The notes under the pieces: model-generated
Seen by the model: only the letters and a program-made list of their open reading frames with translations
Told to the model about the DNA's origin: nothing
Databases searched by the model: none
Shown: piece by piece, positions 125 through 15,903 of the stretch
Position numbering within the stretch: position 1 is the stretch's first letter
Layout of the letters: each line of letters begins with the position of its first letter
From: a virus
Lineage: Duplodnaviria > Heunggongvirae > Uroviricota > Caudoviricetes
DNA length: 16,724 nucleotides
Reading direction: 5' to 3' (one strand)
Virus record (IMG/VR): IMGVR_UViG_2671180460_000005
Position numbers and translations under genes: made by a program

Positions 125-150
125 GGCGGGATATTCCCGCCTTTTTCTTT
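125..150 (+). terminator. Intrinsic-terminator-like hairpin with T-tract between the capsid-side ORF and FI
   Basis: GGCGGG (125-130), loop ATATT, CCCGCC (136-141) gives a perfect 6-bp GC stem, followed directly by TTTTTCTTT (142-150). Confidence 0.5.
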
Positions 151-169
151 ATCGCACAGGAGAGATGTG

Positions 170-550
170 ATGACAAAAGAAGAAATAACAGCGCGTCTTC
201 AGGAGCTGGCGGCAGTACTCGGGCGCGATGCCGATATTTCAGGCTCTAAAGCTGATCTTGAACAACGCCTGGCGGAGTGGGAAGAAGAATTAAGTGATGG
301 TTCAGACGGCCTGTATAAGGATGATGAAGAACCACAACAAAAAAACGAAACACGATCCGAACGTGGGGAGAGTGAGAACCGAAATTCTGTGGATATGGTC
401 ATGGTCAAAGCTGTGGTGATGTTACATGTCAATGCACTCCACGCCATACGGGATAACCCCGTGGCATTTGTACGTCCGGGAGAAGTGTTTCGTGTATCTG
501 CCGTGGTGGCAGCCAGCATGGCAGAAAGTGGCCTCGTGAAAATGTGTTGA
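170..550 (+). CDS. FI: Head completion / DNA-packaging accessory protein, lambda gpFI-like
   Basis: ATG at 170 preceded by AGGAGA (159-164). Product MTKEEITARLQELAAVLGRD... with acidic central linker and conserved C-terminal block LHVNALHAIRDNPVAFVRPGEVFRVSAVVAA matches lambda gpFI as I recall it. The ORF-track start at 38 is an in-frame upstream extension without homology. Confidence 0.85.
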   Translation: MTKEEITARLQELAAVLGRDADISGSKADLEQRLAEWEEELSDGSDGLYKDDEEPQQKNETRSERGESENRNSVDMVMVKAVVMLHVNALHAIRDNPVAFVRPGEVFRVSAVVAASMAESGLVKMC

Positions 551-563
551 ATGTGGGGGAAAG

Positions 564-938
564 GTGGCAGATTTCGATAATCCGTTTGATGCCGCCGTCG
601 CCATGGCTGACGAGGTCATTCTTTGTCATATGGGGATTACGGCGGTAATTACGTCCGGTCAGCTTGAAGGAAAAACACTCAGGGGTGTTTTTGATGATCC
701 TGAAAAAATTTCGTTCGTTGCCGGAGGAGTACGGTTTGAAGATTCTTCACCGTCTTTGTTTGTGAAAACAGCAGATATTACGGGACTGCGCCGTCTGGAT
801 ACGCTGGAGGTTGGCGGGGATCTTTTTCGGGTGGATCGCATTACTCTGGACGACGGGGGATGCTGTTATATCCGCCTGCAACGGTGTGACAGTTCCCGGG
901 GTGATATCAGTACAGGGCGATATTATGAAAGGTCTTGA
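564..938 (+). CDS. FII: Head-tail joining protein, lambda gpFII-like
   Basis: GTG start at 564 with GGGGGAAAGG upstream. N-terminus MADFDNPFDAAVAMADEV and internal RGVFDDPE...SSPSLFV...DGG motifs match lambda gpFII. Confidence 0.88.
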   Translation: MADFDNPFDAAVAMADEVILCHMGITAVITSGQLEGKTLRGVFDDPEKISFVAGGVRFEDSSPSLFVKTADITGLRRLDTLEVGGDLFRVDRITLDDGGCCYIRLQRCDSSRGDISTGRYYERS

Positions 939-12958: not shown

Positions 12959-12969
12959 GTGGGGTGAAT

Positions 12970-15294
12970 ATGGCAGTAAAGATTTCAGGAGTCCTGAAAG
13001 ACGGCACAGGAAAACCGGTACAGAACTGCACCATTCAGCTGAAAGCCAGACGTAACAGCACCACGGTGGTGATGAACACGGTGGGCTCAGAGAATCCGGA
13101 TGAGGCCGGGCGTTACAGCATGGATGTGGAGTACGGTCAGTACAGTGTCATCCTGCAGGTTGACGGTTTTCCACCATCGCACGCCGGGACCATCACCGTT
13201 TATGAAGATTCACAACCGGGGACGCTGAATGATTTTCTCTGTGCCATGACGGAGGATGATGCCCGGCCGGAGGTGCTGCGCCGTCTTGAACTGATGGTGG
13301 AAGAGGTGGCGCGTAACACGTCCGTGGTGGCACAGAGTACGGAAGACGCGAAGAAATCAGCCGGCGATGCCAGTGCATCAGCTACTCAGGTCGCGGCCCT
13401 TGTGACTGATGCAACTGACTCAGCACGCGCCGCCGGCACGTCCGCCGGGCAGGCTGCATCGTCAGCTCAGGAAGCGTCTTCCGGCGCAGAAGCGGCATCA
13501 GCAAAGGCCGCTGAAGCGGAAAAAAGTGCCGCAGCCGCAGAGTCCTCAAAAAACGCGGCGGCCACCAGTGCCGGTGCGGCGAAAACGTCAGAAACGAATG
13601 CTGCAGCGTCACAACAATCAGCCGCCACGTCTGCCTCCATCGCGACCACGAAAGCGTCAGAGGCCGCCACTTCAGCACGAGATGCGGTGGCCTCAAAAGA
13701 GGCAGCAAAATCATCAGAAACGAACGCATCATCAAGCGCCAGTAGTGCCGCTTCCTCGGCAACGGCGGCAGGAAATTCCGCGAAGGCGGCAAAAACGTCC
13801 GAGACGAATGCCAGGTCATCTGAAACAGCAGCGGAACGGAGCGCCTCTGCCGCGGCAGACGCAAAAACAGCGGCGGCGGTGAGTGCGTCAACGGCATCCA
13901 CGAAGGCGACAGAGGCTGCGGGAAGTGCAGTATCAGCATCGCAGAGCAAAAGTGCGGCAGAAGCGGCGGCAATACGTGCAGAAAATTCGGCAAAACGTGC
14001 AGAAGATATAGCTTCAGCTGTCGCGCTTGAGGATGCGGACACAACGAGAAAGGGGATAGTGCAGCTCAGCAGTGCAACCAACAGCACGTCTGAAACGCTT
14101 GCTGCAACGCCAAAGGCGGTTAAGGTGGTAATGGATGAAACGAACAGAAAAGCCCCACTGGACAGTCCGGCACTGACCGGAACGCCAACAGCACCAACCG
14201 CGCTCAGGGGAACAAACAATACCCAGATTGCGAACACCGCTTTTGTACTGGCCGCGATTGCAGACGTTATCGACGCGTCACCTGACGCACTGAATACGCT
14301 GAATGAACTGGCCGCAGCGCTCGGGAATGATCCAGATTTTGCTACCACCATGACTAACGCGCTTGCGGGTAAACAACCGAAGAATGCGACACTGACGGCG
14401 CTGGCAGGGCTTTCCACGGCGAAAAATAAATTACCGTATTTTACGGAAAATGATGCCGCCAGCCTGACTGAACTGACTCAGGTTGGCAGGGATATTCTGG
14501 CAAAAAATTCCGTTGCAGATGTTCTTGAATACCTTGGGGCCGGAGAGAATTCGGCCTTTCCGGCAGGTGCGCCGATCCCGTGGCCATCAGATATCGTTCC
14601 GTCTGGCTACGTCCTGATGCAGGGGCAGGCGTTTGACAAATCAGCCTACCCAAAACTTGCTGTCGCGTATCCATCGGGTGTGCTTCCTGATATGCGAGGC
14701 TGGACAATCAAGGGGAAACCCGCCAGCGGTCGTGCTGTATTGTCTCAGGAACAGGATGGAATTAAGTCGCACACCCACAGTGCCAGTGCATCCGGTACGG
14801 ATTTGGGGACGAAAACCACATCGTCGTTTGATTACGGGACGAAAACAACAGGCAGTTTCGATTACGGCACCAAATCGACGAATAACACGGGGGCTCATGC
14901 TCACAGTCTGAGCGGTTCAACAGGTGCCGCAGGTGCTCATGCCCACACAAGTGGTTTAAGGATGAACAGTTCTGGCTGGAGTCAGTATGGAACAGCAACC
15001 ATTACAGGAAGTTTATCCACAGTTAAAGGAACCAACACACAGGGTATTGCTTATTTATCGAAAACGGACAGTCAGGGCAACCACAGTCACTCATTGTCCG
15101 GTACAGCCGTGAGTGCCGGTGCACATGCGCATACAGTTGGTATTGGTGCGCACCAGCATCCGGTTGTTATCGGTGCTCATGCCCATTCTTTCAGTATTGG
15201 TTCACACGGACATACCATTACTGTTGACGCTGCGGGTAACGCGGAAAACACCGTTAAAAACATCGCATTTAACTATATTGTGAGGCTTGCATAA
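12970..15294 (+). CDS. stf: Side tail fibre protein; lambda Stf-like N-terminal and shaft regions, different C-terminal receptor-binding region with His-x-His repeats
   Basis: ATG at 12970 gives [26 protein letters not shown]..., which matches the lambda Stf N-terminus as I recall it; GTG at 12964 is an in-frame alternative. Long Ala/Ser/Thr-rich repeat shaft, then the conserved fibre motif [24 protein letters not shown], then ...[40 protein letters not shown]... as in P2 H-type fibres, then a C-terminal block with eight H-x-H motifs. Confidence 0.92.
13320..14040 (+). repeat. Ala/Ser/Thr-rich low-complexity repeat region encoding the Stf shaft
   Basis: About 240 codons dominated by GCN, TCN and ACN codons, with recurring units such as AKTSETNA (near 13577-13602 and 13787-13812) and SSETNASS. 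It generates long spurious ORFs in the other frames and on the minus strand. Confidence 0.8.
14770..15213 (+). repeat. His-x-His repeat array encoding the Stf distal tip
   Basis: Eight H-x-H motifs (HTH, AHAH twice, HSH, AHAH, AHQH, AHAH, HGH) embedded in Gly/Ser-rich spacers, with recurring nucleotide units GGTGCNCATGCNCA. Confidence 0.8.
14806..14886 (+). repeat. Tandem 30-nt (10-codon) repeat inside stf
   Basis: GGGACGAAAACCACATCGTCGTTTGATTAC ([10 protein letters not shown]), then GGGACGAAAACAACAGGCAGTTTCGATTAC ([10 protein letters not shown]), then the partial unit GGCACCAAATCGACGAATAAC (GTKSTNN). Confidence 0.85.
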
Positions 15295-15875
15295 TGGCAT
15301 TCAGAATGAGTGAACTACCACGGACCATAAAAATTTATAATCTGCTGGCCGGAACCAATGAATTTATTGGTGAAGGTGATGCATACATTCCACCTCATAC
15401 AGGTCTGCCAGCAAACAGTACCGATATTGCACCGCCAGATATTCCGGCTGGCTTCGTGGCTGTTTTCAACAGTGATGAGGCATCGTGGCATCTCGTTGAA
15501 GACCATCGGGGTAAAACGGTTTATGACGTGGCATCAGGGGATGCATTATTTATTTCTGAACCCGGTCCGTTACCGGAAAATGTCACCTGGTTATCCCCGG
15601 ATGGAGAGTATCAGAAGTGGAACGGTACAGCCTGGGTGAAAGATGCAGAAGCAGAAAGACTGTTCCGGATCCGGGAGGCGGAAGAAACAAAAAACAGCCT
15701 GATGCAGGTAGCCAGTGAGCATATTTCACCGCTTCAGGATGCTGCAGATCTGGAAATTGCAACGGAGGAAGAAACCTCATTGCTGGCGGCCTGGAAGAAG
15801 TATCGGGTGTTGCTGAACCGGGTTGATACATCTTTAGCGCCGGAAATTGAGTGGCCGCAGCAACCTGTCAGTTAA
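15294..15875 (+). CDS. tfa: Tail fibre assembly chaperone, Tfa-like
   Basis: ATG at 15294 overlaps the stf stop as TAATG. 193 aa. It sits directly downstream of the fibre gene, and its N-terminal half (...[29 protein letters not shown]...[14 protein letters not shown]...) resembles the lambda/T4 gp38-type Tfa family as I recall it. Confidence 0.85.
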
Positions 15876-15882
15876 AGCATTG

Positions 15883-15903
15883 CCGGCGAAAGCTGGCTTT
15901 TTT
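15883..15903 (+). terminator. Terminator-like hairpin (GAAA tetraloop) with T-tract after tfa
   Basis: GCCGGC (15883-15888), loop GAAA, GCTGGC (15893-15898) gives a 6-bp stem with one G-U pair, followed by TTTTT (15899-15903). Confidence 0.5.

Follow-up and report, generated by a model that had tools for sequence, protein, structure and literature searches.

Conserved hairpin and T-tract elements between the late genes of a lambda-type phage as putative conditional intrinsic terminators

The window analyzed here, a 16,724-nt stretch of caudoviricete DNA (IMG/VR record IMGVR_UViG_2671180460_000005), carries late genes of a lambda-like prophage from the end of the major capsid gene (E) to J, lom, stf, tfa, and a second tail-fibre gene. 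All six stem-loops with T-runs proposed in the original prediction were present, and its gene labels were correct (Table 1). Its description of them as lying at nearly every module boundary held in that each of the six intergenic gaps of at least 20 nt in the window (E-FI, V-G, I-J, J-lom, lom-stf, and tfa-second fibre; sizes 50, 56, 60, 61, 64, and 40 nt) contains one element, but not in that the FII/Z, U/V, T/H, H/M, and stf/tfa junctions have none. The gap between FI and FII is only 13 nt when the FII start is taken, lambda-style, as GTG 564. The six elements are on the + strand, 4–26 nt past a stop codon and outside coding sequence, and end 16–29 nt before the next start codon, with a Shine-Dalgarno sequence directly after the T-tract. 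Their stems comprise 6–9 pairs and their loops 3–4 nt, with folding energies of -9.0 to -17.1 kcal/mol, and T occupies 6–7 of the 8 nt after the stem at every element. There were 5–7 G-C pairs per stem in the five elements caught by a simple hairpin scan, which missed the I-J element because its T-tract is interrupted. The strongest element of the window is the one after lom.

Table 1. Coordinates and anatomy of the six hairpin and T-tract elements (dG in kcal/mol; z, local fold compared with shuffles)
Junction	Stem-loop	Element to	Strand	Stem-loop sequence	dG	Tail	Stem-loop-stem	nt past stop of	nt before start of	z
E-FI	124-142	150	+	AGGCGGGATATTCCCGCCT	-13.8	TTTTCTTT	8 bp, AGGCGGGA-TAT-TCCCGCCT	4, E (major capsid)	27, FI (ATG)	-4.5
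V-G	2671-2688	2697	+	ACCCCGGTATGCCGGGGT	-12.8	TTTTTGTTT	7 bp, ACCCCGG-TATG-CCGGGGT	18, V (major tail tube)	20, G (true start, ATG 2709)	-3.0
I-J	8784-8801	8811	+	AACCGCCTGCGGGCGGTT	-12.2	TTGTTGTT (interrupted; TTTTGTTGTT past core stem)	AACCGCC-TGCG-GGCGGTT	19, I	23, J (ATG)	-3.3
J-lom	12240-12255	12264	+	CGTCCGGGAACGGGCG	-9.0	TTTTATTAT	6 bp, CGTCCG-GGAA-CGGGCG	16, J	29, lom (ATG)	-1.9
lom-stf	12932-12953	12958	+	AGCCCGCCGGAACCGGTGGGCT	-17.1	TTTTTG	9 bp, AGCCCGCCG-GAAC-CGGTGGGCT	26, lom	16, stf (ATG)	-3.2
tfa-second fibre	15882-15897	15903	+	GCCGGCGAAAGCTGGC	-10.3	TTTTTT	6 bp, GCCGGC-GAAA-GCTGGC	6, tfa	18, second tail fibre (ATG 15916)	-1.5

A stringent scan (dG ≤ -9, at least four T in six and at least five T in eight nt adjoining the stem) returned exactly six + strand matches in the window, namely these six elements, and none on the minus strand, whereas 100 dinucleotide shuffles of the window gave 0.25 ± 0.48 matches per strand (maximum 2), ruling out a chance origin. 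The same six also ranked as the top six in an independent hairpin ranking; a d'Aubenton-Carafa-style score served as a heuristic only. The comparison of folding energies with shuffles, proposed originally as a check, set apart four of the hairpins, but those at J-lom and tfa-second fibre are not individually significant because their z values reach only -1.9 and -1.5. The marks of an intrinsic terminator were found together, that is, a GC-rich stem, a flush U-tract, a position on the transcribed strand past a stop codon, and compensatory changes. Bidirectional termination was considered and rejected: read on the minus strand, 124-142 is followed by a poor tail (GACCTTATTT), and the stringent scan accepts nothing on that strand. 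An Rfam search of the window gave no match at any element, its sole match being IS009, within tfa.

Across approximately 200 related loci, the genes with a recurrent hairpin and T-tract downstream are D, E, V, I, J, and lom; other genes hardly ever have one. Counted by junction in a non-redundant set of 55 loci spanning many genera of Enterobacterales, such an element directly follows D in 16 of 18 cases, E in 14 of 19, V in 13 of 44, I in 29 of 51, J in all 10, and lom in 3 of 4, with none after C, FI, FII, U, or L. Further elements of this kind were detected in other loci after inserted lipoprotein or membrane genes. Matches were also seen within the protease gene (C, or the ClpP domain); they correspond to a conserved motif of the protein and were rejected as regulatory candidates.

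The stems themselves have been preserved in several ways. The sequence of the E-FI element is unchanged in 13 related loci, and the I-J stem is near-invariant around a variable loop (TGCG, TCCG, TCAG) among 36 distinct sequences, lambda among them. At J-lom, other lom alleles have a different hairpin at this site, with 98.4% of the stem alignment paired, compared with 40–65% in slid controls, and with compensatory double changes at two of the seven pairs in nine sequences each (G-C/A-U and C-G/U-A). In the V-G stem alignment (A2), 98% of cells are paired and the closing pair changes from A-U to G-C, giving one compensatory pair. The I-J and lom-stf elements are mostly either invariant or swapped outright, the lom-stf junction of relatives carrying AGCCCGCC-GGTTCA-GGCGGGCT or the unrelated GAAGCCCGTGG..CTGCGGGCTTT, and unrelated hairpins substitute for one another at E-FI, J-lom, and lom-stf. 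The tfa-second fibre element, with too few relatives for covariation, is confined to one lineage (the window and loci L001 and L088), representing 1 of 13 distinct sequences downstream of tfa. Alignment columns of the T-tract are invariant while flanking columns vary, and the T-tract stays flush with the stem. When the best hairpins were picked without regard to their tails, the next 8 nt held 4.8–6.9 T after the D, E, V, I, J, and lom hairpins compared with 1.1–2.5 for equally stable hairpins in coding sequence. Presence, non-randomness, positional conservation, covariation, and U-tract conservation are thus directly established here. Judged from these alignments, both the stem and the adjoining T-tract are under selection, and real termination therefore appears to fit better than a bare exonuclease barrier. 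By the same sequence criteria, the six elements are real, evolutionarily maintained Rho-independent-terminator motifs.

The late operon of phage lambda also has intergenic hairpins, at D-E, E-FI, I-J, J-lom, and lom-stf, with the same layout of stop codon, hairpin, T-tract, and Shine-Dalgarno sequence. Its lom-stf gap (lambda 19586-19649) is 100% identical to that of the window, its 60-nt J-lom gap (lambda 18905-18964) is 98.3% identical, and its I-J stem-loop is identical, whereas its E-FI hairpin (ATGGCCCTTCGGGGCCAT) is unrelated in sequence but sits at the same junction. Tandem terminators t'J1-4 were reportedly placed distal to lambda J by Luk and Szybalski in 1983. Lambda lacks the tfa-second fibre element because it has no second fibre module. 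The original prediction had placed the V-G element where protein demand drops, an argument weakened by lambda, whose V gene (55% identical to V of the window) is followed by a 15-nt gap with no hairpin, and by the presence of an element after only 13 of the 44 diverse V genes.

The closest sequenced phage, mEp460 (JQ182728.1; ~84% identity over 71% of the window), has a protease-capsid fusion in its head module in place of C/D/E, and its record lists "rho-independent terminator" features after the capsid gene, the major tail gene, J, and lom. The I-J element is left unannotated in that record, and an extra terminator within gene T has no strong counterpart in the window. The lom-stf site is likewise annotated as "terminator" in Ayreon. 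Because the elements are present in lambda and annotated as terminators in the closest sequenced relative, they are an ordinary, already known feature and not a new kind of element.

Insulation of lom expression in a lysogen, offered originally as one possible role, was not demonstrable. A consensus scan, which can miss weak or activator-dependent promoters, found no sigma-70-like promoter from the J-lom hairpin up to the lom ATG, and no convincing one in the 3' end of J, where no site scored at least 9/12 and the best (8/12 at 11901) lies upstream of the hairpin. With no lom promoter detected past the J-lom hairpin, the picture of an insulator upstream of lom may be wrong; the hairpin might just as well belong to the lom leader. 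Morons are defined by their own promoter and own terminator (Juhala et al. 2000, as summarised in Cumby et al. 2012, PMC3594210). In accordance with moron architecture (PMC3594210), lom is accessory, is expressed from the prophage, and has its own strong terminator after it (the -17.1 kcal/mol element directly downstream), and inserted lipoprotein genes of other loci carry their own hairpin and T-tract. However, its base composition is not distinct (GC 0.549, compared with 0.569 for J and 0.550 for stf), nor is it polymorphic in presence, following J in 72 of 74 loci in a sample biased by the lom-based search. The small RNA 24B_1 from the lom region of Stx phage phi24B was set aside as unrelated; it is encoded on the other strand, within 428 nt that are absent from lambda-type phages.

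The premise that a Q-loaded polymerase from pR' reads through terminators is textbook: pR' is constitutively active, and its transcripts are terminated in lysogens and read through only with Q, as outlined in PMC7547250. The original prediction gave two options for the elements, termination of unmodified polymerase only or service as a 3' stabiliser or processing site. Q, qut, and pR' are all outside the window; the Q-sensitivity proposed for the elements rests on this established lambda biology, and we infer both their activity, in termination or stabilisation, and its Q dependence. We consider it somewhat probable that they are conditional terminators, ignored by Q-modified polymerase and stopping any other, with the hairpins possibly stabilising upstream mRNA segments as a secondary effect. 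These GC-rich hairpins and U-tracts, lodged on the sense strand between one gene's stop codon and the Shine-Dalgarno sequence of the next, are held by selection at set positions: behind D, E, V, I, J, and lom, and behind accessory genes that have been inserted. Polymerase that acquired Q at pR' would not be stopped by them, so the whole operon would be one transcript in lytic growth. Polymerase started elsewhere, whether in the prophage state, in early infection, at spurious internal promoters, or in a lom transcription unit, would halt at the next hairpin, keeping the tail and fibre genes silent and giving lom a defined 3' end. On the read-through late mRNA the hairpins would still fold and secondarily block 3' exonucleases, favouring segments that end with D, E, and V. 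No transcript 3'-end mapping of these tail-region sites was found in the searchable full-text literature.

Insulation does not account for the clustering behind D, E, and V, whose products are the most abundant, nor does it say what harm a lysogen would suffer from transcribing its tail genes on the sense strand. As terminators, the J-lom and tfa-second fibre hairpins are weak (-9 and -10 kcal/mol, with the lowest significance of the set), the U-tract at I-J is interrupted, and lambda manages without a V-G element.

The stabilising role could instead be the primary one, with the elements serving as 3'-exonuclease barriers and, for the segment that follows, as 5' stem-loops after endonucleolytic cleavage of the late mRNA, so that D, E, and V segments are longer-lived and termination is incidental. 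We consider this unlikely, although the elements do follow the three most abundant virion proteins at the frequencies given above, one also follows the capsid-fusion gene of mEp460-type heads, and the stems are kept by compensatory change. There is precedent in tL2a, a read-through terminator of the N-antiterminated early operon of lambda that forms the 3' end of a stable, Hfq-bound lytic RNA (PreS/LPR1); however, neither small RNAs nor stable fragments have been reported from the tail-region elements, and the lambda RIL-seq study reported late-operon small RNAs only near pR' and not at these junctions (bioRxiv 10.1101/2024.10.31.621285). Moreover, the U-tract is conserved flush with the stem although a barrier could do without one; I, J, and lom encode low-copy or non-virion proteins, yet are followed by elements; and lambda has no V-G element despite needing the same excess of V. 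It is improbable that the elements are leaky attenuators even for Q-modified polymerase, producing a descending staircase of mRNA that tracks falling protein demand. Several of them do follow one another along the operon, T7 and LUZ7 use inefficient terminators inside operons to tune expression (PMC9163698), and partial termination is listed as a possibility for phage L (PMC8022706). However, the high-copy protein V is encoded after the D and E terminators and after low-copy FI, FII, Z, and U, an order of demand that no monotonic staircase can reproduce. The V-G element is also dispensable in lambda, and the suppression of terminators over long distances by Q-type antitermination counts further against attenuation.

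A part in translation initiation, with the hairpin shielding the downstream ribosome-binding site from structure upstream of it and the U-tract acting as an S1 standby or enhancer site for uncoupled genes, strikes us as quite improbable. The spacing from the start codon, the Shine-Dalgarno sequence right after the T-tract, and the placement exactly at junctions without start/stop overlap all agree with it, as does the action of U-rich leaders as translational enhancers. Nonetheless, a U-tract always flush with the stem is terminator geometry and is needless for an S1 site, phage genome compaction alone predicts tight spacing, and the motif is also found behind moron genes, in the manner of an ordinary terminator at the end of an operon. 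The idea that the elements are recombination linkers or scars marking mosaic joints is barely credible and was largely refuted by breakpoint analysis: 8.6% of 671 breakpoints were within 75 nt of a hairpin compared with 5.4% expected, and the principal joints fall within J (11250-11800), near 900 and 2300, and within lom and stf. Similarity to lambda begins at 6769, where there is no hairpin. What agrees with this idea is a small breakpoint excess at I-J (8750-8850) and at the end of tfa (15850), together with the tfa-second fibre element, which is ~25 nt to the right of 15856-15857, where similarity to most relatives stops.

The modest but genuine question of what terminators do within antiterminated phage late operons is sharpened by the comparative result that stem and U-tract are both selected, that the junctions behind D, E, V, I, and J are preferred across Enterobacterales, and that the elements are not the main recombination joints. 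A more speculative and rather improbable extension is a conserved segmentation code, in which the ~25-kb read-through late mRNA would be cut into stable units with a hairpin at each 3' end, setting relative mRNA lifetimes; the units could be ...D / E / FI-V / G-I / J / lom / stf-tfa, and some U-tailed 3' fragments could bind Hfq, as with tL2a/PreS. Lambda itself offers clean targets, as the J-lom, lom-stf, and I-J stem-loops are common to both phages.

Comparable elements have been described in other phages. In the P22-like phage L, intrinsic terminators were likewise predicted inside a single-promoter, antiterminated late operon, one of them closing the procapsid module (Zaworski et al. 2021, PMC8022706). 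The authors noted that such terminators occur commonly inside operons and that their role is unknown, and offered the same two hypotheses (PMC8022706). Phage L is a podovirus, unlike the window in type, genes, and sequences, and that study contained no comparative or covariation analysis. In T7, which unlike a lambda-type operon relies on its own polymerase with no antitermination factor, T-phi, like other leaky terminators, places a hairpin directly after the most abundant structural gene, as is the case here.

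All six of the stem-loops with T-runs named in the original prediction were present at the stated positions. The window covers the head-to-tail region of a late operon from a lambda-type prophage and encodes, all on the + strand, E (C-terminus), FI, FII, Z, U, V, G, T, H, M, L, K, I, J, lom, stf, tfa, and a second fibre gene. Its best match was a prophage adjoining ssrA in E. coli C5 (96.6% identity, full length), the closest sequenced phage was mEp460 (approximately 84% identity), and identity to lambda was approximately 93% from approximately position 6769 onwards. With FII starting at GTG 564, as in lambda, only six intergenic gaps were at least 20 nt long (50, 56, 60, 61, 64, and 40 nt) and each held an element, the remaining junctions being overlapping or no longer than 13 nt; the elements therefore occupy every sizeable gap, and not, as first worded, nearly every module boundary. 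Gaps share a common layout of stop codon, 4–26 nt, hairpin, T-tract, Shine-Dalgarno sequence, and start codon, with 16–29 nt from hairpin end to start codon. G starts at ATG 2709, behind GGAGGGG; another ATG, in the loop of the V–G hairpin, yields a spuriously long G open reading frame.

Coordinates of the six elements and of other features discussed in the text
Feature	Locus	Coordinates	Strand
E–FI element	window	124-150	+
V–G element	window	2671-2697	+
I–J element	window	8784-8811	+
J–lom element	window	12240-12264	+
lom–stf element	window	12932-12958	+
tfa–second fibre element	window	15882-15903	+
Spuriously long G ORF (ATG at 2679)	window	2679-3098	+
tfa coding sequence	window	15294-15875	+
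Rfam IS009 (RF02111) match	window	15637-15835	+
Second tail-fibre N-terminal-domain gene and DUF4376 gene	window	15916-16722	+
Second tail-fibre N-terminal-domain gene and DUF4376 gene	L001 (closest E. coli prophage)	18918-20913	
D–E hairpin and T-tract	L002 (lambda)	580-636 (lambda 6079-6135)	
D–E hairpin and T-tract	L001	2020-2091	
Protease-gene hairpin and T-tract	L163 (related locus)	6508	

A simple scanner recovered five of the six elements, overlooking I–J because of its interrupted T-tract. When every hairpin with a T-rich tail across the whole 16.7 kb was ranked by folding energy, the six best + strand candidates were exactly the six elements, followed by candidates of −7.9 kcal/mol and weaker in coding sequence. 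Under a stringent criterion, the window held six matches on the + strand versus none on the minus strand, and 100 dinucleotide-preserving shuffles gave 0.25 ± 0.48 per strand. Taken singly, four hairpins were more stable than shuffled controls (z ≤ −3), but J–lom (z −1.9) and tfa–second fibre (z −1.5) were not, so that support for these two comes from T-tract and position and, for J–lom, also from covariation.

Among 160 IMG/VR loci retrieved via the V and lom proteins and 76 GTDB genome loci retrieved via V alignment, an element persists at each junction though its sequence differs among relatives. J–lom occurs in five stem variants (GGGCGCC/GGCGCC, GGGCACC/GGTGCC, GGGCGTC/GACGCC, a further related form, and the lambda type CGTCCG/CGGGCG). 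Across 27 distinct J–lom sequences, 98.4% of alignment cells were paired, versus only 40%–65% in control registers shifted by 1–3 columns, and compensatory double changes affected two of the seven pairs, each in nine sequences. The V–G stem was 98% paired, its closing pair switching between A-U and G-C, and the I–J stem was almost invariant around a variable loop. At E–FI and lom–stf, unrelated hairpins substitute at the same place in relatives. In one relative (L135), foreign DNA directly 3′ of the J stop splits the J–lom hairpin (GGGCACCAGAAATGGTG followed by TAATGCCAGTCAG...), destroying the terminator.

Element position was highly gene-specific in a census of 55 non-redundant loci from genera including Escherichia, Citrobacter, Klebsiella, Kluyvera, Enterobacter, Rahnella, Ewingella, Edwardsiella, Proteus, and Providencia. 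A hairpin with T-tract followed D in 16 of 18 loci, E in 14/19, V in 13/44, I in 29/51, J in 10/10, lom in 3/4, and M in 7/42, compared with one locus each for Z and K, two each for G and H, and none for C, FI, FII, U, and L. Heads with a protease-capsid fusion again had the hairpin 3′ of the capsid gene, and extra elements lay 3′ of small inserted lipoprotein or membrane genes. With the best hairpin picked blind to its tail, the following 8 nt contained 4.8–6.9 T at the D, E, V, I, J, and lom junctions, versus 1.1–2.5 after equally stable coding-sequence hairpins past the Z, U, G, and L stops; judged from these sequences, the T-tract itself is under selection. We rejected the idea that the elements are the main mosaic joints, as 8.6% of 671 alignment breakpoints fell within 75 nt of a hairpin, versus 5.4% expected; the big joints lay inside J, lom, and stf, and at positions 900 and 2300.

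The elements belong to a class that was already described, and most of them are themselves already on record, given their lambda homologues, existing annotation, and published discussion. In lambda, the lom–stf gap is 100% and the J–lom gap 98.3% identical to those of the window, the I–J stem-loop is the same, and the D–E and E–FI hairpins are analogous. The GenBank record of mEp460 carries rho-independent terminator features downstream of the capsid gene, the major tail gene, J, and lom, and the Ayreon record annotates the lom–stf element. Intra-operon terminators have been proposed in phage L to terminate partially or to halt transcription begun without antitermination (PMC8022706), and the definition of a moron given in PMC3594210 includes its own promoter and terminator; lom is a standard example of an accessory gene expressed from a prophage. 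The D–E hairpin with T-tract lies just left of the window in L001 and lambda.

We take the six elements to be genuine candidate intrinsic terminators, because stem and flush U-tract are both conserved, every element lies on the sense strand shortly past a stop codon, and inserted accessory genes end in the same motif. The late operon is normally transcribed from pR′ by polymerase modified by the late antiterminator Q. This polymerase would not respond to the elements in lytic growth, whereas polymerase that missed qut would be stopped at them. Such conditional termination is the most economical reading, which we infer with moderate confidence, given Q-modified transcription from pR′, a promoter described as constitutively active and terminated in the lysogen (PMC7547250). 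The original prediction of 3′ stabilisers or processing sites, or of terminators acting only on unmodified polymerase, is reasonable and matches published speculation, and the sequence data support it only in part. Confidence is tempered by the D/E/V preference, by lambda, which lacks the V–G element (therefore dispensable) despite a homologous (55% identical) and equally abundant V, and by a promoter scan that found no lom promoter downstream of the J–lom hairpin. Given this lack of a promoter, the proposed insulation of lom is unproven, and the J–lom hairpin may lie within the lom leader. The searchable literature yielded no 3′-end data for the six sites.

The elements favour junctions past D, E, and V, which encode the most abundant proteins, and this suggests an action on the read-through RNA itself, in which the 3′ hairpins would serve as exonuclease barriers. 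A staircase of partial termination along the operon is unlikely, because in the gene order V comes after the D and E elements and four genes of low copy number. The tight spacing to the start codon suggests a translational role, with the U-tract as a standby site directly before each Shine-Dalgarno sequence, but such a role does not require terminator-type geometry and is a minor rival. We consider it improbable that the elements form a conserved code for segmentation or stability of the late mRNA, perhaps with U-tailed fragments bound by Hfq; as a precedent, the PreS/LPR1 sRNA has its 3′ end at the lambda early-operon terminator tL2a, but that RIL-seq study reported no RNAs of this kind from the tail region (bioRxiv 10.1101/2024.10.31.621285).

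Stx-phage-like relatives (L091, L102, L106, L107, L109, L110, L113, L114, and L124) carry an I–J insert of 235–342 nt. Immediately past the I stop it has a minus-strand terminator-like hairpin (A7 plus TCCCGCAG...CTGCGGGA), and just ahead of J it has another hairpin, on the + strand (ACAGGCAyCC...GGrTGCCTGT plus T-run), with its own compensatory C-G/T-A change. The insert could represent a small antisense unit that has escaped annotation. At the other end of the operon, similarity to most relatives stops at 15856-15857, within the 3′ end of tfa, and the fibre and DUF4376 genes 3′ of tfa directly adjoin the ssrA attachment site. The prophage thus ends on the right in a distinct mosaic module, which is followed by a terminator of its own. 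The full-length IS009 match (205 bits versus a gathering score of 117) lies wholly within the tfa coding sequence, so this 'sRNA' family seems to represent part of the tail-fibre-assembly genes of prophages, not an RNA gene in its own right.

Strong hairpins with T-tracts (−12 to −18 kcal/mol) recur in the head protease gene, for example inside gene C (S49 peptidase) of L001; these encode a conserved motif (..SPGGDVFEGIAIFNAL..) and were rejected as false positives of terminator scans. The mEp460 record likewise has a 'terminator' annotated inside gene T. Several GTDB 'genomes' of unrelated organisms contained contigs of low coverage that matched phage lambda at more than 99% identity, as confirmed by comparison with lambda for L190, L191, L192, L197, L199, and L200 (Neobacillus, Oceanobacillus, Pseudomonas, Shewanella, and Leeuwenhoekiella), which are almost certainly sequencing spike-in contamination. 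L189, L193-L195, L198, and L201 (Kitasatospora and others) gave the same 56% V match.
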